Both the position numbers and the translations under genes were made by a program. Below are positions 1 through 53,606 of a stretch of 64,000 nt of DNA, one piece after another. The number at the start of each line of letters is the position of its first letter. Position 1 is the first letter of the stretch. This stretch comes from a virus. The notes beneath the pieces are model-generated. The model ran no database searches. It saw only the letters and a list, made by a program, of their open reading frames with translations, and was not told where the DNA came from. Where the stretch lies: positions 1-64,000 of IMG/VR virus record IMGVR_UViG_3300017991_000077; one strand, given 5' to 3'.

Positions 1-42
1 AACCGGACTCGAAAATAATCGGCTTAAAAATGGTTAACAGTG

Positions 43-195
43 ATGCCAATTAAAATGGGTAATTACAAACATGGTGAGAGTAAAGTTGAATGCAGATTTT
101 GGGAAGACAAAGATGGTCCCCTGGAAATAGAACCGTGGTCAGGAAATCGGCCTAGAAAAAAATATGAAGAAACTGCATACCCCGTAATGTACTAG
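43..195 (+). CDS. small hypothetical protein (50 aa, MPIKMGNYKH...)
   Basis: ATG 43 to TAG 195 read manually; below the ORF-track cutoff; no recognisable motif. Confidence 0.4.
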   Translation: MPIKMGNYKHGESKVECRFWEDKDGPLEIEPWSGNRPRKKYEETAYPVMY

Positions 196-442
196 GACAT
201 TGACAAGTCTACTTTGAAGAAACCAAAACACCCCTCAAAAAGAAGAAAAAGCGCCCCTCAAAATAAAGAGAAAACGCCCTAACTAGTTAAAAGAAAAGCG
301 CAATTCTAAAGAAGAATTAAAAAGAACTTATATAAAGACTAAGAAGAAGAAGATAGAGCTCCCTCTAGATACTCATCCCATAGTGCCTCCCCAATTCCCA
401 AGATCCTCGTAGTCTTCACTTCGGTTTAAAACGAGAATGGCC

Positions 443-627
443 AGATCGCTGGGACCCCTGGTATCATTGGCTTATATGCAGATTGAGGCAATCCCCGGTA
501 TTACTGCATAGTCTTAAGATCGCTGGAGTCCCTGGTACTATTGGCTTATATGAAGATCGCTGAGACCCTTGATAGCACTGCATAGTATGACGATTGCTGA
601 GACCCGCACGGTGTCTACGTTTCCGCG
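443..627. repeat. tandem array of five imperfect 37-bp units (AGATCGCTGgracCCcTGGTA...)
   Basis: Units start at 443, 480, 517, 554, 591; 3' halves alternate between TTGGCTTATATG and CTGCATAGT types; fifth unit degenerate. Confidence 0.85.
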
Positions 628-1018
628 TTTCTATCAGCAGTAATACGAGAGCCCGAAGAAAGAAGCTGAGGTCTATTTTGAATACCGGACGCAGTATATA
701 CCCTCATAGAGGGCATAGTATCGACCCCTTTTAGCGATTCAGCGATTCGGTAAAACGTGCTCAGATTGAACAATAGTTCGGCCCCTGAGACCGAACGTTA
801 TTAGGTTGATCCCCATACGAAAACACCAACTTGGCCGAATATAATTCAGTTTGAGGGGTATCAGACTCCATACTATATATAACTACCCACTACCTGGAGC
901 CCTACGATTAGTCTCCAAGGCAATTATTCAAAGATATTTAACAGTGATTCGTAAGACTCAATCATAGCCTACTCGGTATTAAGATGAAGGAAACATACTC
1001 ATAGAGGGAATAGTATGA

Positions 1019-1092
1019 AGATCGCTAGGACCCCTGGTACTATTGGACAATATGAAGATCGCTGGAGCCCCCGGTATTACTGCACGGTCTCA
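1019..1092. repeat. two further copies of the 37-bp unit
   Basis: AGATCGCTAGGACCCCTGGTACTATTGGACAATATGA (1019-1055) and AGATCGCTGGAGCCCCCGGTATTACTGCACGGTCTCA (1056-1092). Confidence 0.85.
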
Positions 1093-1402
1093 TGCACGAG
1101 ACAAAATAAAAGTCAAGCACAATTAGGTCCGAAAATCAGTTTTAGATTCTAGCACGAGTTTTCGACCCTTAAAGGGCCGGTCACGGTGTGGTGCCCCACC
1201 TACTTCTCACACTAGGAAGAAGATACGAAATGTAGCCTTTCGAGAAGCACAGCCGATAGCAGAAATCGAGGAATCCTTCTACCGAGCCTCATGAATGAGT
1301 GTGAGTATATCTTTAAACAGCTGGGGTATGTGAAGTAGCGGAGCCTGACGAACTAGGTGGACTAGACTGAGCCCTAACGGAGGGGATAGAAAGTAGTATT
1401 CT

Positions 1403-1621
1403 TTAGGGCGCGAGTTTTTCCAGGGATTTGATGATGGAGTGCAGTCTATTTATTTCGACTAATAGGAGGTCGACGAGGCAGTACTGACAATACAGTTGGT
1501 CATCGAGTCTAAAGAATGCGAGTTCTTTACAGCGGGGTGATGAGCAGATGAACGGATGTGTATAGACTCTTTCGACGTTGAAGATTTTGAAGGTAGTGTG
1601 TTTAGTGTGTTTATTTGGCAT
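1403..1621 (-). CDS. small putative zinc-finger protein
   Basis: CSSPRC...CQYC; GGAGG Shine-Dalgarno just upstream on the minus strand (plus-strand CCTCC at 1626-1630); the only convincing minus-strand gene. Confidence 0.7.
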   Translation of the reverse strand: MPNKHTKHTTFKIFNVERVYTHPFICSSPRCKELAFFRLDDQLYCQYCLVDLLLVEINRLHSIIKSLEKLAP

Positions 1622-1997
1622 GAATCCTCCAGTCTTCGGTTACAGATATATATCCTATCATACATCGTAAATTTCGGTTGTTTCGGTTGTTGGCGGGGAA
1701 TTGAAACTTTTAACGGGCTAAAAAATCGAATTCTCAGTATCTGAGGTTGGTGATACCTCGATTTTTTGCAAAAGGACTAGTTAACTCCTTCTAAAATCCG
1801 TGATTTTATTTGAATTTTGAGCTGCATTTTATGGGATTGCTTATTTTGATCCAAAAGGTAGCGAAAAGGCGGATTTTCGGCAGATTTTCGGCAAAAATTG
1901 ACCCAAATTTCGTGCTAAACTACTCCGACATGTGAGATTTTTTACCTACGATTTCGCATGGTTACCCACTGAATCAAGTATTTGTTCAGTTTCGCTA

Positions 1998-2026
1998 TTG
2001 ACAAAACTGGCCTATACCCTTAAATT
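1998..2026 (+). promoter_or_regulatory. sigma70-type early promoter P1
   Basis: TTGACA-N17-TAAATT; shares TTGACAAAAC...ACCCTTA with P2 and P3. Confidence 0.8.
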
Positions 2027-2067
2027 TTACTCATGGCAGGCAATTGCCCAACAACAAGGAGTCGAAA

Positions 2068-2798: not shown

Positions 2799-3090
2799 TC
2801 TATATACGATACACTATCCAATACATTAGACGCGCGAAGACTCATAGGCGGCAAGGCATTGTCCGCAAATGCTGACCCTACTCCATGTATGCACTGACCC
2901 AAAGCAATCCAACAGGTGCCCCAGGGCGTCCAGTCAGCCCTAGTTCCGCGTTGTATTCTTGCCTGATTAATTCCTACCCTGCCAAAATCCCGAGTCGTAC
3001 TCTGTTTTTTCGATTCCATAACGTCTTTTCAATGGCGAAAATAATTCCCCAATAATTTCGACCAGTTGAAAAGTATTTCCCAGCAAGGTA

Positions 3091-3119
3091 TTGACAAAAC
3101 CCATTTGCACCCTTAAATT
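3091..3119 (+). promoter_or_regulatory. sigma70-type early promoter P2
   Basis: TTGACA-N17-TAAATT (TTGACAAAACCCATTTGCACCCTTAAATT). Confidence 0.8.
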
Positions 3120-3166
3120 TTGCCTATGGCGGAAAATCCGCACAACAACTACCCAGGAGGTACTCT

Positions 3167-3792: not shown

Positions 3793-3999
3793 ATGGTGGA
3801 TATTTCAAAAATAGTGGACATCCCAAAACTAGCAAACGCAATCATGGACCGTGATTCTGACCACATTCGAGAAGTTATTTCGAGTGTTTCGGAGGATCAG
3901 ATAACCGAATTATTGGATGTAATTCAAGAAGAAGTTGCTCGTCGAGTAAAAGTTCGATGGTTAAAAAACGTAGTCAATGTAGATTTAGGAATCAAGTAG
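3793..3999 (+). CDS. hypothetical protein
   Basis: GGAGG RBS; tight packing after the previous gene. Confidence 0.65.
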   Translation: MVDISKIVDIPKLANAIMDRDSDHIREVISSVSEDQITELLDVIQEEVARRVKVRWLKNVVNVDLGIK

Positions 4000-4031
4000 A
4001 TAAGTTATTTTCGTTTATTTGTCACAGGGCA

Positions 4032-4060
4032 TTGACAAAACTAGTATGAACCCTTATATT
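4032..4060 (+). promoter_or_regulatory. sigma70-type early promoter P3
   Basis: TTGACA-N17-TATATT (TTGACAAAACTAGTATGAACCCTTATATT). Confidence 0.8.
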
Positions 4061-4124
4061 ATATATGGACGATGGACGATGAAACAAAAACAATAGGGTC
4101 AGAAAACAAAGAAGGAGCGAAGCA

Positions 4125-4505
4125 ATGTATACAAAAGAAGACGCGATGTTTGATGCAGAACAGATGGGAGTAGATTTGTATCCCGGACTTTGCAGGTATT
4201 GTGGCAAGCCAAAGATTAAGTGTCGTGCTCATTGTACGTGCGAAGAATGTTCAGAGTGTGGGGATTTCAAAGGCGTAGGTGGTTCTTGTGATTGTGAGGA
4301 AACGAAATCAGTAGAAGAAAAACAGCTAGAGCTAAAAGAAATGCGGGATGAATTGTACGCAGAGTTAGATACTTTAGCAGACCAGGATCTTGACGACACC
4401 AGCATACAAGAATATATCGAACGAGAAATCGAGAGTCTTCAGTTTGAAATTGACGAAATGGATACTCAGTTAGCCCGCCCCGAAAAAGTAGGACCAAAAG
4501 TCTAG
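4125..4505 (+). CDS. Cys-rich (metal-binding) plus acidic coiled-coil early protein
   Basis: CRYC...CRAHCTCEECSEC...CDC followed by an Asp/Glu-rich helix; AAGGAG RBS. Confidence 0.7.
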   Translation: MYTKEDAMFDAEQMGVDLYPGLCRYCGKPKIKCRAHCTCEECSECGDFKGVGGSCDCEETKSVEEKQLELKEMRDELYAELDTLADQDLDDTSIQEYIEREIESLQFEIDEMDTQLARPEKVGPKV

Positions 4506-4571: not shown

Positions 4572-6341
4572 ATGGATAAGATACACGAGAACACTCAGCA
4601 GGCTGAAGAAGTAGCAATCGACGCATCGTCAGGTATTCCCAAAAGAAGACTTACGGATTTAGAAATTTCTAGATTAGCCGATGCAGTGATTCAGTTTTCT
4701 CAGTCTATGTGCGGTATTGAGTTATACCCTTACGAGGAAGAATTTGGGTGGCGGATTGCCTATTCAGTTCTTCGAGAAGATGCCGATGAGATAACGGCGT
4801 TGTTTTCTAGGCAATCTGGAAAGACTGAAACAGTCGCAGTCGTAGTATGTGGTATGGCAGTAATGCTTCCGAGTCTTGCAAAGCATCTAGAACATGATGA
4901 GCGTTTGGCAAAATTCAAAAATGGATTGTGGTGTGGTATCTACGCGCCAGGATACGACCAGGCGGGAATCATGTGGGCTCGCATGAAAACCCGAATGTAT
5001 TCTAAAAAGGCCATTTCTACCTTGCTAGATCCAGACATCAATATGGACCTCTCAGGTGCAACTGAAAATCTAGTTCTTCCAAACGGGTCCTTTGTTGATT
5101 GCGGTACTGCGGCACCGCAGGCAAAAATTGAAGGTAAAACGTATCACCTAATTTTGTTAGAAGAATCGCAGGATATTGTTAGTTCTATGATGCGGTCTGC
5201 TATCCATCCGATGGCGGCGGCAACGGCCGGCACGCTAGTAAAAATTGGGACGTGCAATCGTCTTCGGTCTGATTTCTACGATGCATGTCGGAGAAATAAG
5301 CGATCGGATGTGAATAATGGAAGAGTGCGGTCTAAGTATCGGTTGCACTATGAATATGATTATACGGTCGCTCAAAAATACAACAAAAAGTATCGCAAGT
5401 ATGTCGAAAAAGAGAAGATGCGGCTTGGAGAAGGTTCTGACGACTTTAGAATGAAGTATCGATTGCACTGGATGTTGGAACGAGGGATGTTCATCAATCC
5501 AGATTTGTTTGATGAGTGTGGCATTAAAGGTGAAAAACAAAGTCTATATATTTCAGTTGGAAGAGGTAGAAGAAAACGAAAAATCGAGTTTAAACGGCCA
5601 CCGAACGTAGTAACCTTTGATTCTACTACTCCGAATATGGTTGCAGCCATTGACGTCGGACGAGAGGCATCTACAGTAATCACTGTTGGCAAAGTCTTTT
5701 GGGATTCTCCTATTCAACACGGTGATTCTGACCGATACCCGATCCACGTCATGAACTGGTTAGAACTCTATGGAGATGACCATGAGGCGCAGCATCCCCA
5801 GATTTTAGATTTTCTTAAAAACTATCAGCTCTCGGATGTTATTGTGGATGCTACTGGTAAGGGTGACCCAGTATATTCACGACTGGCGGCAGACTTGGAC
5901 AAAGTGAATATTCAAGTAACTCCTTTTGTATTTACCGCCCAGTCAAAAGACATCGGCTATAAAGTATTTAGTCAAGAAATATCTACCAGGCGGTTTACCT
6001 TTCCAGCCGGATCTAGGGCGTCCCGTCTTCAGAAATGGCAAAAGTTTTGTGGTCAAATGTACGACCTACAAAAGGATTGGCGTGGACAGAGGATGGTCGT
6101 GAGTAAGCCAAAAGACTCTGTAGAAGCTTCGGACGACTTTTGCGATTCAGCTATGATGCTTTGTTGGGCTGTAAATGTCAGAGGAACTATGGAGATTGAA
6201 GAAGGCCCGAATCCGTTCCTCGGACGAGAATCTCGGTGGGTTGCGGCGGAAATGTTCAAAAACGCAGGAGCGTGGTATCGTAAAAAGATGGACCCAAGAT
6301 TTAAACAAACCCGCAAAGGCCACAGAGGTAGGTGGGATTGA
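4572..6341 (+). CDS. terL: terminase large subunit
   Basis: Walker A SRQSGKT, Walker B LILLEES, GT coupling motif, RNase H-like nuclease residues AAIDVG / VDATGKG / DDFCDS; upstream of portal. Confidence 0.93.
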   Translation: MDKIHENTQQAEEVAIDASSGIPKRRLTDLEISRLADAVIQFSQSMCGIELYPYEEEFGWRIAYSVLREDADEITALFSRQSGKTETVAVVVCGMAVMLPSLAKHLEHDERLAKFKNGLWCGIYAPGYDQAGIMWARMKTRMYSKKAISTLLDPDINMDLSGATENLVLPNGSFVDCGTAAPQAKIEGKTYHLILLEESQDIVSSMMRSAIHPMAAATAGTLVKIGTCNRLRSDFYDACRRNKRSDVNNGRVRSKYRLHYEYDYTVAQKYNKKYRKYVEKEKMRLGEGSDDFRMKYRLHWMLERGMFINPDLFDECGIKGEKQSLYISVGRGRRKRKIEFKRPPNVVTFDSTTPNMVAAIDVGREASTVITVGKVFWDSPIQHGDSDRYPIHVMNWLELYGDDHEAQHPQILDFLKNYQLSDVIVDATGKGDPVYSRLAADLDKVNIQVTPFVFTAQSKDIGYKVFSQEISTRRFTFPAGSRASRLQKWQKFCGQMYDLQKDWRGQRMVVSKPKDSVEASDDFCDSAMMLCWAVNVRGTMEIEEGPNPFLGRESRWVAAEMFKNAGAWYRKKMDPRFKQTRKGHRGRWD

Positions 6342-46556: not shown

Positions 46557-46943
46557 ATGGAAACACTACAAGGATTTATAGAGTTTCTGTCCACGACAGT
46601 TTGGGTTCATTGGCCCATTCTGATGTGGATTGTCGTCCTATCGATGTTAGCTCAGATCGTAAAGACCAGGATTTGCACCGTAGACCTAGCGAGGAAAAAT
46701 GTAGCAATCTTTTGGGTGAGGAGGATCTTCCCGATAATTTTGCTTTTGATGGGTTTAGTCATGGGGGCGATATGGCCCGGGGAATCTTCACCCGGTGTAG
46801 TAGGGCGTACGTATAATATGCTCTATTTTGCGGGGGGCTCGGCCATGTCCATTACTTTCTTTAACGTATTGAAACAATGGATAAAGCGAAAGTACGACGT
46901 AGAAATTGGCCTGCTAGGAAGTGCTTATCCGCCGAAGCCATGA
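46557..46943 (+). CDS. putative holin (three hydrophobic helices)
   Basis: 128 aa, 3 predicted TM segments, basic C-terminal part; AAGGAGG RBS; TATAAT at 46530. Confidence 0.55.
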   Translation: METLQGFIEFLSTTVWVHWPILMWIVVLSMLAQIVKTRICTVDLARKNVAIFWVRRIFPIILLLMGLVMGAIWPGESSPGVVGRTYNMLYFAGGSAMSITFFNVLKQWIKRKYDVEIGLLGSAYPPKP

Positions 46944-47272
46944 TATTTCAAAAAATCAAGAAAGCCGCATTGTGGATTGTCGGAATACTGGCAATCATAG
47001 TTGGAATCCTATTTGCACTAGACTACGAGAAAGGAAAAGTAGCCCGGCTGAAGGCAGAGGTTGCCATAGCGAAAGCTCGAGAGAAACTTCAGCATCTAGA
47101 AATACAGAAGAAATCCCTTTTAGAACAAGAAAGGCAAATCGGGCGTAAGGATTCGAATCTTGGAAAACGTTTGGCAAGTTTAGATTCTGAGATTCAGAAA
47201 GTGAAGTCAGATGTTAAGAAGAAAACGAGTGCAGAAATTGTTCAGAGGCTTAACGAAATATATCGTCGTTAG
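46940..47272 (+). CDS. putative inner-membrane spanin-like protein
   Basis: N-terminal TM (ALWIVGILAIIVGILFAL) plus coiled coil; ATG 46940 overlaps the holin stop. Confidence 0.5.
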   Translation: MIFQKIKKAALWIVGILAIIVGILFALDYEKGKVARLKAEVAIAKAREKLQHLEIQKKSLLEQERQIGRKDSNLGKRLASLDSEIQKVKSDVKKKTSAEIVQRLNEIYRR

Positions 47273-47690
47273 TTGGCTGCTTCTCATACCGTCGAGTGTT
47301 CTTGCCGAAGGTACGGACGCTTTGACTAAAGCCATTTCTTTGGAATACGAAGGCGAAGAAGGAATGTGGTTTCCTTCGGACATGGTTTCAGACATGCTTT
47401 TCGACATAGAACTCGCCCGAGTACTCCAAACGAAAGTAGATGTTTTAGAAGAAAGGGTTCGGGCTAAGGAGGATCGGATAATTCTTTGGAAGGATATTAA
47501 CAAGAAGTCCGAAGAGAAGCAGCTCGAGACGATGAAAATACTCGATAAGTCTATTGAAAAGTATGAAAAAATGGACCTTGCGAAGAATAAATGGTGGAAA
47601 CATCCGGCTTTATGGGTGAGTGTGGGCGTCGTTTTGACCGTTTTGGTGCAAGTAGGATCTACGCAACTATTCAAAGCTATTGACGATTAG
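47211..47690 (+). CDS. putative spanin-partner: signal peptide, coiled coil, C-terminal TM
   Basis: Overlaps the previous gene; ends WWKHPALWVSVGVVLTVLV; no lipobox Cys seen. Confidence 0.45.
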   Translation: MLRRKRVQKLFRGLTKYIVVSWLLLIPSSVLAEGTDALTKAISLEYEGEEGMWFPSDMVSDMLFDIELARVLQTKVDVLEERVRAKEDRIILWKDINKKSEEKQLETMKILDKSIEKYEKMDLAKNKWWKHPALWVSVGVVLTVLVQVGSTQLFKAIDD

Positions 47691-47730
47691 ACTATAACTG
47701 TACTTTTTTCATAAGACCCTAAATTATCTA

Positions 47731-47759
47731 TTTACAAAAATCCAACCATTCAATATCCT
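47731..47759 (+). promoter_or_regulatory. possible promoter of the replication leader
   Basis: TTTACA-N17-TATCCT in an AT-rich intergenic stretch; second candidate TTGAAC-N16-TATAAT at 47843-47870. Confidence 0.45.
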
Positions 47760-47769
47760 TATTTTACCT

Positions 47770-47990
47770 TTTCCTACGAGGTGTTAGTGGAACCGTTAAA
47801 GGTAGAAGTAGTGACTCTATCTAGAAGAAGTGGTTAATTTGGTTGAACGAAACACCAGTTGCCCTATAATCAAAATTGGCCGTCTCGGCATCGAGACCCC
47901 GTTGGTGATTGGTCGGGTCCTCATTCGAGGTGTTCTAACTACTTCGCCTGATTCAATCGTAGGAGCCAACGGGGTTTTCTTTTTCTCGGG
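47770..47990 (+). ncRNA. structured cis-regulatory leader / attenuator upstream of the replication initiator
   Basis: Stem 47893-47905/47966-47978 followed by a U-tract; hairpin 47832-47881; several alternative long-range complementarities. Confidence 0.55.
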
Positions 47991-47998
47991 AGATTCAT

Positions 47999-49129
47999 AT
48001 GACATCAAGTGAAGAATCGATGGTAGACAGTCTCGACCTTTCAGATCGAGACATCAGGTTGATATTCAAAATCAAGTCCCTTCAGAACAAAGGAGTTCGG
48101 GTTAGAATCGCAGATCTAGCAGAGTTTTTTCACGTCAGTAGACCTACTATAGAAAGATCTCTAAAGAAATTTAGAGAGCTGGAGATTCTCAATATGTCTC
48201 GTGAGGGGTCAGTTTTTTGGAGATATGAGTTCCATGATGGGTCACAAAAAATGGCCCATCATGCACCATCAAAAAGGGCAGGAGAAGTGTCAGAAATGAC
48301 CCATCATTCTTTTGCTAAAGAGGAGTCTTCCCAGCCAAAAAACAGACGAAAGATTCGCCTTCCCTTGTCTATACATACTAAGAGACAATTGTCCTTAGCC
48401 AGACAGAACAAAAATAGAAGGCGACCCATCAATTTGCTGGACCTCAGCAAAGAACGGAGTTCTTTAGGTTGTTTTAGGTCTTTAGAGAAACATAAAACAC
48501 AAGAAAACAAACTTCGATGTCGAATAGACAAACCATTAATATCACCAGAATCCAACATTATCTACTTGTTCCCCTTAGACACAGAAATGATACCAAAGGA
48601 GGAGGTCATGCCCAAAGTTTCAGGACCATCAGGCCCAATTAGGGATGCGGTCGAACAGGGTTTATCTCAGTCAAAAGAGGCTCATTGTCTAGCTAAAAAG
48701 AGGACATCTAAGGCCCCGAAACAGACTGAAGTATTCAAGGTAAAAAGGACACGCGCAGAGCAACAAAGAGCTGCTATGGAACAAAAAGACGTTTCAGAGT
48801 ATAATTGTAATGATATGTGGTATGTGTTTAAAGATTTTTGGAGATGGGAAGGTAAACCGATAGGGTGGACAAAAAGAGATCGAAAGCACATAAAAGAGTT
48901 GATAGATGAGCAAGGAGCAGAGGCTGTGGTTACTTATATCAAGTATGCAATTGAACATTGGAATGCTTTATGTTCTAGGTTCAATGTGTCAGGGAAACCC
49001 AGCGTACCTTGTCTATATGGCTATAGACGAACATGGCTTTATGAGGCCCTAGAAGGTGGACCGAAGGCTAGAAAAAACTATGGGGCGGAGTATTCAGATT
49101 CAGATATTCCGTCAGGAAGTTGGGGTTAG
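47999..49129 (+). CDS. putative replication initiator (N-terminal winged HTH)
   Basis: RIADLAEFFHVSRPTIERSLKKFRELEIL HTH; internal iteron-like repeats; upstream of a DnaC-like ATPase. Confidence 0.65.
   Translation: MTSSEESMVDSLDLSDRDIRLIFKIKSLQNKGVRVRIADLAEFFHVSRPTIERSLKKFRELEILNMSREGSVFWRYEFHDGSQKMAHHAPSKRAGEVSEMTHHSFAKEESSQPKNRRKIRLPLSIHTKRQLSLARQNKNRRRPINLLDLSKERSSLGCFRSLEKHKTQENKLRCRIDKPLISPESNIIYLFPLDTEMIPKEEVMPKVSGPSGPIRDAVEQGLSQSKEAHCLAKKRTSKAPKQTEVFKVKRTRAEQQRAAMEQKDVSEYNCNDMWYVFKDFWRWEGKPIGWTKRDRKHIKELIDEQGAEAVVTYIKYAIEHWNALCSRFNVSGKPSVPCLYGYRRTWLYEALEGGPKARKNYGAEYSDSDIPSGSWG
48202..48306. repeat. four iteron-like 10-mers (TGATGGGTCA consensus), two in each orientation; candidate origin
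   Basis: TGAGGGGTCA 48202, TGATGGGTCA 48235, inverted TGGCCCATCA 48252, inverted TGACCCATCA 48297. Confidence 0.6.
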
Positions 49130-49468
49130 TTGATGGCAGGGATGAGCAGTATGGCATTAAAAAGGTGCCGTCGAATGACGATAGACGTGAGTGAAACCTC
49201 GGGATATTTGGCCCGAATTCAGGTATTTGATCCCAGACGAAATGGGAGTTGCATATCTGAATATCTGGCCAGACACGCTATGGATACCGAGAGAATCAAG
49301 AGGGCTTGGATGTCTAAATTCCAGGTGCCTCCGGAGTTGATTACGGTAAAACATGAGGGTATACCCGTTTCGGATAATGCCGAGACAGATATTATAGAAG
49401 ATAAGCCTCCCGAGGGGAAAAGTGGAGGAAAAGAAAATGCCGATGAAATTGAGCGAAGCACATCATGA
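49130..49468 (+). CDS. hypothetical protein
   Basis: Fills the gap between initiator and loader; start uncertain. Confidence 0.5.
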   Translation: MMAGMSSMALKRCRRMTIDVSETSGYLARIQVFDPRRNGSCISEYLARHAMDTERIKRAWMSKFQVPPELITVKHEGIPVSDNAETDIIEDKPPEGKSGGKENADEIERSTS

Positions 49469-50051
49469 GTATATGAATATCGGTAAAGCGTACTGGGGTG
49501 CGGATACCGAGAATTTTACTCCCAAACAGAAAAAAGCGATAGCCGGATACCTTAGTGATCTGCCAGGCATGATTCGGTCTGGTATCGGTATCTATTTGTG
49601 GGGAGATAATAGCCGAGGTAAGAGTTATATCGCGGCTGCTTTATGCCGAAAGGTCTGGGCAGATTATCGAGTAACTTCTTACTACGTAACGGCATCTGAA
49701 TTGAAAGAAGCCTGGATTGATGACGTAGAAGCACATCCAGGATCTTCAGAGATGATGACAGACAGAGTTCAAGAAGCGAGATTCTTGGTTCTCGATGATT
49801 TCGGTAAAGAACATCGAACATCTTCGGGTTTTGCCGAGTCTAAATTCGGAGCTTTACTTCGGAGCAGAAAGAAAGAACTCTTGACTACGGTGATTACGAG
49901 TAATTTGGACCCGAGAGAGTTTGGGGAGGTCTACGGTCCATCTACGAAGCATTTAATGAGGGAATGCATGGTTCCTATCCGGCTCAAGGGACAAGATATT
50001 AGGGAACGGATAGCCAAGCGAATATACGACGTTTTTCAAGCAACGGCATAA
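49437..50051 (+). CDS. DnaC/IstB-like AAA+ helicase loader
   Basis: GIYLWGDNSRGKS Walker A, LVLDDFGKE Walker B, TVITSNL, GQDIR. Confidence 0.9.
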   Translation: MPMKLSEAHHEYMNIGKAYWGADTENFTPKQKKAIAGYLSDLPGMIRSGIGIYLWGDNSRGKSYIAAALCRKVWADYRVTSYYVTASELKEAWIDDVEAHPGSSEMMTDRVQEARFLVLDDFGKEHRTSSGFAESKFGALLRSRKKELLTTVITSNLDPREFGEVYGPSTKHLMRECMVPIRLKGQDIRERIAKRIYDVFQATA

Positions 50052-51915: not shown

Positions 51916-52341
51916 ATGCAGCGCGGAGAACTGTCCAATCGGCCCGCAGCTATTTGTGGCGTTGATTACCGAGTGTTATTGGATATCAGATTTCCTTACG
52001 GATGGTTCCTCGTAAAAGTACCTGAGTTACTTCTAAGCAAACATTTTGAAGGTATGATGCGGGAGGCGTTACCTTGGCGTGTCGGTGCTCGGGGTTGGCT
52101 TGAAAGAAACTGGGAAAGGAGGTTCGCAAGCGTATCAGTAGGAGTGCCCTTGCTAGCACCAGCTATTGATATGATTTTAGGGGACTACATCGCAGAGCAA
52201 TATCATTTCGACACAGTTCAGGATTTCAGACAATGGGTCAGAATTACTCCCCAGGTATATCGAGTGTTCACTGAAGATGCAGCCTTGTTGGGGTTAGATA
52301 ACATTACTTCTCGATTATCTGGTTGGACGGAGAAAGCGTAA
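51916..52341 (+). CDS. conserved-type phage hypothetical protein upstream of the helicase
   Basis: MQRGELSN start; translationally coupled to the helicase. Confidence 0.6.
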   Translation: MQRGELSNRPAAICGVDYRVLLDIRFPYGWFLVKVPELLLSKHFEGMMREALPWRVGARGWLERNWERRFASVSVGVPLLAPAIDMILGDYIAEQYHFDTVQDFRQWVRITPQVYRVFTEDAALLGLDNITSRLSGWTEKA

Positions 52342-53606
52342 TGAACTACGAAGAGGCGTTGATTTCTAAGATATTGACGGAGGGGTGTCTTGAAGAGGTT
52401 TTGGACGCTAGAGTTTCTGTAGACCTTTTCGAATCGCATAAGGATGTTTGGGAATATGTTTTGGAGGTTTTTCGGGAACATGGGAGCGTTCCCCCAGTAG
52501 ATACAGTCGAACAACGGTTTCGAGATTTTTCGATGGAGGTTTCAGAAACCTCGATGACATTTTTCATATCGGAGCTTCGTAAGAGATGGGTTCACAATAC
52601 GATAGCCACGAGCATGAAGGTTCAGGCGGATCTCTTGAAGAAAAGAGAACCTTTGCAGGCTTTAGATGAAATGAGGGAAACTCTACTCAAGGCGGAGGTG
52701 GAATCGAGACCTGCAAAAGACTTGAATATTGTAGAAGAACCTGAGCGTCGTATTACTGCATATGAAGACATTGTAAAAGCAGGAGGTGTTACAGGTATTC
52801 CTACTCCTTGGGCATGTTTTAACGAGGTTACTCAGGGGTTTAATGGGGAAGAACTCATTATGATGGCTGGGAGGTCTGGAATTGGTAAAACGTGGTGTGA
52901 GGCAGTTTTGGCTTGTGCTCAGTGGTCGCTAGGTTATACGCCGATACTGTTTTCAAGAGAAATGGCGGTACATCAGATTGTTCGGCGTATTGATGCAGTG
53001 CATGCGCAGCTCCCGTACCAGAGATTTCGATCTGGGTTGTTGACTACTGATGAGTTTGAACGATGGTCGAAATCTTTGGCCGAAATGAAAGATGGGTTAC
53101 CTTTTTGGGTGACGGGTGATGATGAGGGAAGATTGGGCGTATCTGGTATTGCGGCAAAGATTCATCGATATAAGCCGTCAATAGTCTATATCGACGGAGG
53201 TTATCTTTTAGAAGATGAGAGAGGTGCTCGAGCATCTTGGGAGCGGTGGTCTAATGTATGTCGGGATTTGAAGAAGCTGGCGCAACAGGAGAATCTTCCG
53301 ATAGTCTTATCACATCAATTTAATCTGGAGGGTAAAGACGATAAAGGGGATGCAGATACTCTGAAGTATGGTGACGTACAGATGTGGTTTGATTTGATTG
53401 TCGGGTTATATCAGACAGAGGATTTGCGATTGAATAAGGAGATGCTTTTTAAAATAAACAAACAACGAGAAGGAGAGAGACTTGAGTGGGTGACTGAATG
53501 GGATCTAGATAAGATGGTTTTCGAAGTAAAATCTGAAGGACGAGATGATGTAGGAGAGGCTGTTCCTTATGAAGAAGATTCAGAAGGAGACAGAGTACCT
53601 TTTTAA
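52341..53606 (+). CDS. dnaB: DnaB-like replicative helicase
   Basis: GIPTPW..FNEVTQGF...ELI..AGRSGIGKT, FSREM, IVYIDGGYL, LKKLA....PIV..HQFN, KQREG. Confidence 0.92.
   Translation: MNYEEALISKILTEGCLEEVLDARVSVDLFESHKDVWEYVLEVFREHGSVPPVDTVEQRFRDFSMEVSETSMTFFISELRKRWVHNTIATSMKVQADLLKKREPLQALDEMRETLLKAEVESRPAKDLNIVEEPERRITAYEDIVKAGGVTGIPTPWACFNEVTQGFNGEELIMMAGRSGIGKTWCEAVLACAQWSLGYTPILFSREMAVHQIVRRIDAVHAQLPYQRFRSGLLTTDEFERWSKSLAEMKDGLPFWVTGDDEGRLGVSGIAAKIHRYKPSIVYIDGGYLLEDERGARASWERWSNVCRDLKKLAQQENLPIVLSHQFNLEGKDDKGDADTLKYGDVQMWFDLIVGLYQTEDLRLNKEMLFKINKQREGERLEWVTEWDLDKMVFEVKSEGRDDVGEAVPYEEDSEGDRVPF

Follow-up and report, generated by a model that had tools for sequence, protein, structure and literature searches.

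How does transcription enter the replication module of a phage in which nearly all genes lie on the + strand? The question is raised by a spacer of 308 nucleotides (nt; 47691-47998) in the virus record IMGVR_UViG_3300017991_000077 (97,475 bp, ~94% complete), of which the first 64 kb (64,000 nt, referred to here as the window) were analyzed. The spacer follows a lysis-like gene cluster and carries the leader of a gene for a 376-amino-acid (aa) winged-helix protein (ATG 47999-48001; gene 47999-49129, + strand), the first gene of the replication module, which is called the initiator on the basis of its position. A conserved promoter-like site precedes the leader, which holds a long terminator-like hairpin and short upstream boxes complementary to unpaired parts of this hairpin. 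The leader is read here as an RNA that controls the initiator gene in cis in the manner of an attenuator, at slightly less than even odds (probability about 0.48). A first-pass annotation had proposed RNA control of replication, or of the lysis/latency decision, through a kissing-loop antisense/attenuator switch. All the repeats, stems, and promoter-like sites that it listed were present where it had placed them; the promoter, the hairpin, and the box pairs held up on comparison with relatives, but the kissing loop of c4/CI type did not. A role in the lysis/latency decision is without support, lysogeny having been outside the analysis.

The hairpin occupies 47893-47978 on the + strand. Its closing stem (47893-47906/47965-47978) has a core, ACCCCGTTGG/CCAACGGGGT (47896-47905/47966-47975), that is 100% complementary, and G-U pairs lengthen the stem to GAGA.../...UUUU. 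The enclosed parts comprise two inner helices, a 15-nt 3' internal loop and an apical CCUC-AUUC-GAGG, with a 6-nt 3' bulge, GUAGGA (47959-47964), directly above the closing stem. Four G-C pairs (CCCC/GGGG) stand directly before the U-tract UUUUCUUUUUCU (47975-47986, + strand; 10 U in 12 nt, TTTTCTTTTTCT after the stem), which ends 2 nt before the Shine-Dalgarno (SD) sequence GGGAGA of the winged-helix gene (47988-47993, + strand). Folded as + strand RNA, the hairpin reached -38.5 kcal/mol (z = -4.27 vs. shuffles), compared with -25.2 kcal/mol (z = -2.0) for its complement on the - strand, the weaker fold of which follows from six G-U pairs on the + strand; no U-tract was found on the - strand side. 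The hairpin sequence is unique in the 97-kb genome, and it was the most stable U-tract-adjacent hairpin of that genome (-35.2 kcal/mol in that scan); beyond the 43-kb late block it stands alone as a strong terminator candidate. A small hairpin, GUCUCG-GCAU-CGAGAC (47882-47897, + strand; -8.5 kcal/mol, z = -3.05), which the first-pass annotation had described as a competitor of the stem's 5' arm, is present and abuts that arm. The whole 251-nt leader gave z = -1.69, and the leader upstream of the hairpin was without self-structure in the window (z = +0.82) and in the related locus described below (z = -0.9), as expected if the boxes stay free. Within the window alone, the terminator hairpin is the only part that is clearly non-random, and the long-range pairings appear convincing only through comparison.

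For that comparison, protein searches gave two metagenome loci, L002 (without upstream DNA) and L003 (with upstream DNA), and viral contigs L049/L055, L052/L053 and L054 were found via DnaB and a wider initiator alignment. The relatives are syntenic over many genes. Other searches were negative within their scope: blastn of 46800-49200 against a phage GenBank collection gave no match, the initiator protein and alignment A1 found no relatives in the viral and genome contig collections, and the same was true of alignment A4 in the genome contig collection and of the DnaC-like protein in the viral contig collection. A DNA pattern of the 3' arm plus U-tract had 4 matches in the viral contigs, none with the 5' arm. 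A gapped stem pattern was also tried on the viral contigs and rejected, its 41 loci being unrelated terminators or coding matches, none of which encode relatives of the neighboring genes.

L003 is the only relative with the gene order of the window at this junction, that is, the spanin-like gene (28% identity), a 334-nt spacer, and the initiator (41% identity). Its spacer holds a hairpin of the same kind (-30.0 kcal/mol, z = -4.28 on the + strand vs. -22.5 kcal/mol on the - strand). The closing stem AACCCCATTGG...CCAATGGGGTTTTCTTTT differs from ACCCCGTTGG...CCAACGGGGTTTTCTTTTT of the window by one compensatory change, G-C to A-U, the U-tract GGGGTTTTCTTTT is identical, and the 6-nt 3' bulge directly above the closing stem is kept. 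The terminator-like stem and U-tract proposed from the window alone are thus conserved, and both hairpins show the G+C-rich stem and immediate U run of intrinsic terminators. The SD lies 2-4 nt past the U-tract in the two genomes, and a small hairpin is found in L003 at the equivalent place (3033-3049).

A promoter-like site, P1 (TTTACA-N17-TATCCT, 47731-47759, + strand; 9/12 match), lies upstream of the hairpin, and the transcription start would fall at ~47766-47768. In L003, P1 is found at 2900-2928 with identical hexamers and spacing and unrelated spacer letters, and sites of the same type lie upstream of the initiator homologues of L054 (TTTACT-N17-TATTCT) and L049 (TTTACT-N17-TAGTGT), so that 4 of 5 lineages have a P1-type site before the homologous gene. 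The candidate promoter of the first-pass annotation was borne out in this way. The background of the loose pattern was 0.012 per 350 nt, and the strict form occurred 3 times in 286 kb, each time before an initiator gene. Judged by this conservation and the consensus match, P1 is probably the gene's own promoter. The distance from the -10 hexamer to the ATG is 239 nt in the window and 206 nt in L003, both with the hairpin, and 32 and 51 nt in relatives without it. In the window and in L003 the terminator-like hairpin therefore stands between promoter and start codon, as in an attenuator, and the conserved P1 together with these distances places the hairpin module within the gene's own transcription unit, rather than merely at the end of the late operon.

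A rival explanation is that the hairpin merely ends or insulates transcription where the late/lysis genes meet the replication module, as an ordinary intrinsic terminator (possibly also an RNase III site or an mRNA 5' stabilizer), that the pairings are chance or leftovers of local duplication, and that read-through is constitutive and unregulated. The setting suits it: the hairpin is confined to the two lineages in which the initiator directly follows the spanin-like lysis gene (in L049, L052, and L054 the lysis cluster and the initiator are separated by one to three additional genes), and no other strong terminator candidate follows the late block. Perfect inverted repeats of at least 8 nt were marginally enriched in the 308-nt spacer (3 observed vs. 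0.77 expected, P = 0.047). However, a late-operon terminator would be expected upstream of the promoter, and the hairpin lies downstream of the gene's own conserved promoter. The relatives, moreover, have no terminator at their late/early junction. A plain insulator is on this evidence unlikely, although it deserves to be kept in view, and the box pairs are a further point on which it can be judged.

Box A (UCCUACGA, 47772-47779, + strand) is complementary to A' (UCGUAGGA, 47957-47964, + strand), which consists of the 6-nt bulge plus 2 nt and immediately precedes the closing stem's 3' arm. Box B1 (GAAGUAGU, 47805-47812, + strand) is complementary to 47938-47945 of B' (UAACUACUUC, 47936-47945, + strand) in the internal loop of the hairpin, and box B2 (GAAGUGGUUA, 47827-47836, + strand), with which the direct repeat D3 (TAGAAGTAGTG/TAGAAGAAGTG) is associated, may serve as an alternative partner of B' (10 bp including one G-U, read from sequence). 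The complementarities themselves, TCCTACGA/TCGTAGGA at 47772/47957 and GAAGTAGT/ACTACTTC at 47805/47938, had been listed as 'further pairings' by the first-pass annotation, and counterparts of different sequence occupy the same structural places in L003. There, the bulge GUGCACC (3095-3101) has its partner in GGUGCAC (2962-2968), and the apical loop (3074-3082) has its partner in CAAUCGAAA (3008-3016). The A/A' and B/B' pairs are nested in both genomes, their letters are unrelated, and all targets are unpaired parts of the hairpin. A direct repeat (TCCTACGAGGTGTT at 47772, TCATTCGAGGTGTT at 47921) means that the hairpin interior of the window copies box A and its flank, which is compatible with the duplication history invoked by the insulator explanation; the recurrence of nested box pairs at equivalent places of the two hairpins, rare in decoys, argues against that explanation.

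Variation in this stretch can be seen in strain X4 (96% identical, 2024 sediment run). Of 8 listed substitutions (9 differing letters counted), all lie within 47728-47820, none in box A or B, and 7 lie within 47728-47753, around the -35 hexamer and spacer of P1, where TTTACA is changed to TTTAGA. The stretch 47821-47907 is unchanged. Five DNA sequencing runs contained parts of this stretch (shares 0.06-0.34), four of which gave only low-depth contigs of 151-292 nt, and no RNA sequencing run containing it was found.

The terminator-like hairpin lies between the conserved promoter and the SD, so the gene would be reached by read-through, which is what makes this an attenuator-type leader. In the proposed mechanism, transcription would start at P1 (47731-47759), and the ~230-nt leader would end in the stable hairpin with its GC-rich base and U-tract (47893-47986), acting as an intrinsic terminator that polymerase passes only by read-through. 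Near the 5' end of the leader, the single-stranded boxes A, B1 and/or B2 may pair with the exposed 3'-side segments A' and B'. Formed first in the course of transcription, these pairs would clamp the 3' half of the hairpin beside the 3' arm of the closing stem, and the clamped state, whether an antiterminator or a pseudoknot, would hinder or delay closure of the terminator. Transcripts without the boxes (those from a second promoter-like site, P2, if it is real), or transcripts with the boxes occupied by a factor, would terminate. The hairpin with its strand bias and conservation, the conserved promoter, and the conserved box complementarity are shown; termination itself, its modulation by the boxes, the direction of the effect, and any factor that frees or blocks the boxes are inference. 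For the window, folding calculations agree with the proposal: RNA transcribed as far as A', and still short of the 3' arm, adopts the A-A' helix, and the nested alternative lies only 4.5 kcal/mol above the terminator fold. The A-A' and B-B' pairs could also coexist with the hairpin as a pseudoknot.

Tests against natural decoy leaders favor the attenuator reading. A nested pair with a summed length of at least 16 was found in 0.57% (window) and 0.31% (L003) of ~6,350 such leaders, a complement of at least 7 nt covering the bulge in 1.6% and 0.43% of decoys, and, in a weaker energy test, the full duplex energy was equalled or beaten by 4% and 5% of decoys, respectively. Several points weigh against the reading. 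These tests were designed after the pairs had been seen, and joint probabilities overstate the case. Only two hairpin-bearing sequences are available, and the covariation amounts to one stem pair and two box pairs. Three syntenic relatives (L049, L052/L053, and L054) are without the hairpin, which is thus dispensable for the gene family; the branching of an initiator tree does not decide between gain and loss of the hairpin. The ~80-nt hairpin is also atypical as an intrinsic terminator: where the usual form is compact (stem ~5-14 bp, small loop), here 60 nt of further helices and loops in the window, and 41 nt in L003, lie within the closing stem, and a consensus terminator scanner (loops of 3-8 nt) did not list it. 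The terminator fold dominates at equilibrium in both genomes (P about 1), and the nested alternative of L003 is 16.5 kcal/mol worse than its terminator fold. In L003 the boxes would more plausibly dock on the bulge and loop as a pseudoknot. Finally, classical attenuators have a pairing partner in one arm of the terminator stem, whereas these boxes pair with the bulge and loops, so that their effect on termination is a guess. Even so, that paired boxes should fall on equivalent parts of the two hairpins is not easily dismissed.

The second promoter-like site, P2 (TTGAAC-N16-TATAAT, 47843-47870, + strand), was also confirmed as a sequence match (10/12) and is a candidate promoter. It raises the possibility of a ~105-nt small RNA that starts at P2, is ended by the terminator, and acts in trans through bulge and loop on boxes A and B of longer P1 or late transcripts, a same-strand 'antisense' control in the style of P4 CI or P1 c4 RNA. 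P2 is the best sigma-70-type match of the region and resembles the TTGACAAAAC promoter family of the same phage, L003 has TGGACA-N17-TATAAA at ~3001-3029 just before its hairpin (by eye), and the hairpin folds identically as an isolated RNA with A' and B' unpaired. However, the P2-like sites are not homologous. P2 overlaps the conserved boxes GAACGAAAC (47845-47853) and CACCAGTTGCCC (47853-47864), and both reappear in L003 with changed order and orientation, GAACGAAAC lying at the -35 in the window and downstream of the -10 in L003. The boxes lie ~220 nt from the SD, which leaves no obvious translational target, and complements of A' and B' occurred genome-wide in near-chance number, none at start sites. 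Together with the absence of an Rfam c4 match, these points make a small RNA of this kind improbable.

The TTGACAAAAC family deserves a description of its own. Nine strong sigma-70-type promoters have the extended -35 TTGACAAAAC(T) in common; all are on the + strand before early or non-structural genes (window 1998, 3091, 4032, and 55483; genome 69562, 85634, 86555, 87336, and 89431), and none lies in the structural block at 4.5-47.7 kb. The motif is also found ahead of early genes in the relatives L049 (4357) and L052 (~1250). At genome positions 89431-89500, such a promoter is followed by a short hairpin CGGCUGAAAAGCCG and AAUUUUUU directly before an SD, so that the phage has another leader of terminator-like kind close behind a promoter, this one compact. 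The motif CCTACGATT occurs twice in window positions 1-2043 (901 and 1945), its second copy just upstream of the promoter at 1998; this stretch has no open reading frame (ORF) of at least 80 aa on either strand.

The phage immunity systems behind the small RNA idea are well known: P4 immunity depends on the CI RNA with seqA, seqB, and seqC, and P1/P7 have the c4 RNA with a/b target boxes. As in these systems, the leader encodes a stable hairpin with exposed loops to which short same-strand boxes are complementary, and it stands ahead of early or replication functions. The first-pass annotation had gone further and proposed their target/antisense/target layout, with AACACC in the loop of a hairpin (47832-47881) as partner of two CGAGGTGTT targets. 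That hairpin exists but folds no better than shuffles (z = -1.17), and the pairing spans only 6 bp, so the kissing loop finds no support from it. The layout CGAGGTGTT, AACACC, CGAGGTGTT is absent from L003, where the one AACACCTC, at the leader's start, finds no GGUGUU to pair with in the leader. In contrast to P4 CI and P1 c4, the two conserved boxes precede the hairpin, no target follows it at the ribosome site, and there is no tRNA-like processing signal. An Rfam search returned no family at gathering score in the whole window and no c4-type match at E <= 10 in 47500-48200, where matches at this cutoff were at chance level (small nucleolar RNA, microRNA, and a fragment of a CRISPR direct repeat). 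A riboswitch had also been considered, as the phage has 7-deazaguanine genes, and was set aside when no preQ1 or other riboswitch model matched. The leader is best classed as an attenuation variant before replication genes, and not as a c4/CI-type system.

Translation could in principle take the place of RNA pairing. If a leader ORF ran through the terminator and ended at the initiator start, a ribosome would melt the hairpin and pass on to the initiator start codon, in the style of pyrBI, repY-repZ, or tap-repA. L003 has this arrangement in its sequence, as AGGAG-N9-ATG (2984-3000) opens a 46-codon frame across the whole hairpin, the stop of which (TGA, 3136-3138) overlaps the initiator ATG (3135) as ATGA. 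In the window, the frame 47830-48012 likewise runs through the hairpin, with its stop 11 nt beyond the ATG, but it starts with GTG without an SD, and the leader is without any ATG. The peptides of the window and L003 are unrelated beyond the nucleotide-identical 3' arm, with the 5' arm read in different frames, and a comparison of the leader ORFs of the two genomes on both strands gave no similarity beyond that arm. The 60-aa ORF 47830-48012, which as a conserved protein would have offered another account of the sequence, is thus not conserved in L003. Moreover, a frame open across the stretch from hairpin to ATG was present in ~56% of shuffles. Coupling to translation is accordingly rated as very improbable.

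The spacer could also act as DNA, as a replication origin or an operator cluster in which the short direct and inverted repeats are bound by the winged-helix protein or by some other DNA-binding protein of the phage. The region adjoins a DNA-binding protein gene. Between the spacers of the window and L003, 19 motifs of 7 nt or longer were shared (vs. 11 +/- 3.4 in shuffles), with several of 8-10 nt; those in common include CCAGTTGC, AAGTAGT, GAGGTGTT, and GAACGAAAC, in differing order and orientation, and CCAGTTGC and its complement flank P1 in L003. Against this, the hairpin folds far better as RNA of the + strand than the complement does, owing to its G-U pairs, and a U-tract follows on the + strand only. 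The motifs occur in 1-3 copies at irregular spacing and are not enriched genome-wide, and there is no skew change at the site. A DNA-level element is considered the least probable of the explanations weighed here.

Some of these motifs, and other features of the junction in relatives, are recorded as observations. The 10-mer CCAGTTGCCC/CACCAGTTGC forms an inverted pair flanking P1 in L003 (2874-2883, 2956-2965), possibly an operator, and is present in the window as a single copy in the spacer of P2 (47853-47864). The 9-mer GAACGAAAC is conserved at 47845 in the window and 3035 in L003. L049, which has no terminator hairpin, carries a 12-bp perfect palindrome, TAGACATAATCA-N11-TGATTATGTCTA (5505-5545), over the start codon of its initiator homologue, possibly an operator or a hairpin that sequesters the start codon. 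L049 also has a second copy of a 46038-like gene after its spanin-like gene, and a small extra helix-turn-helix gene just before the initiator homologue (3894-4310, 5037-5423). The late/replication junction is a gene-insertion hot spot in this phage group.

In the genome of the window, the spacer is preceded immediately by the last gene of the lysis-like cluster (47211-47690), the upstream neighbor of which (46877-47272) has weak spanin-family matches. The 376-aa winged-helix protein gene is followed downstream by a DnaC-like loader (49422-50051) and then the DnaB helicase (52323-53606). By structure prediction and comparison, the N-terminus of the 376-aa protein is a winged helix (ArsR/MarR/DnaD-N-like), the sole region that was confidently folded and matched, and the C-terminal domain is conserved and without any match. 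A scan of the window for tRNA and transfer-messenger RNA genes found none.

Among known systems, the attenuator reading of the leader can be placed first beside lambda, with its arrangement PR-nutR-tR1-cII-O-P, in which tR1 is Rho-dependent, and its PR'-6S RNA-tR' unit read through by Q. As there, a terminator separates an early promoter from the replication or next-stage genes, read-through would be needed, and a short terminated RNA from near the promoter would be expected. Unlike lambda, no boxA/boxB or qut-like element and no N- or Q-like gene was identified here, and the conserved box GAACGAAAC is found only in weak hairpins. The replication leaders of plasmids pT181 (repC) and pIP501/pAMbeta1 (repR) are antisense-driven transcription attenuators (PMC5415839). 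The leader of the window resembles them in the sequence of promoter, untranslated leader, and intrinsic terminator just before a replication-protein gene, and in the competition of two folds, part of the 5' leader being able to pair with the terminator region. It differs in that no opposite-strand promoter-like site for a countertranscript was found in 47700-48000 (the - strand fold of the leader was also no better than shuffles), in that the boxes target bulge and loop and not the terminator's 5' arm, and in its far longer hairpin; there is no sequence relationship. In the repZ leader of IncI-alpha/IncB plasmids, a leader peptide, repY, and an activator pseudoknot are involved (PMC5415839). 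Here too a hairpin loop pairs with a distant part of the leader upstream of a replication gene, and the L003 leader ORF overlaps the initiator start as ATGA; unlike repZ, the window has no credible start for a leader ORF, the pairing partner does not lie beside the ribosome site, and no antisense gene is present.

A literature search for an equivalent phage element returned general reviews only. Leader-RNA control of replication genes is textbook knowledge for plasmids, P1, and P4; to our knowledge, little of it has been charted in the large uncultured phages dominant in sediments and seawater. The leader may, on a tentative view that we hold with less confidence than the attenuator reading itself, represent an undescribed class of phage cis-regulatory RNA, a terminator hairpin 'double-clamped' by two upstream boxes that pair with bulge and loop, with transcription of the replication genes decided either by a race between folds as the RNA is made or by the binding of a phage or host factor to the boxes. 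Should termination be tuned by the box-bulge pairings, they would define a new attenuator geometry, in which boxes clamp a bulge and loop inside the terminator, and, if true, this would offer a compact part for synthetic transcription control. For the phage group itself, the locus provides a natural comparison of the same gene with and without such a gate, two lineages having acquired or kept an RNA module of ~200 nt.

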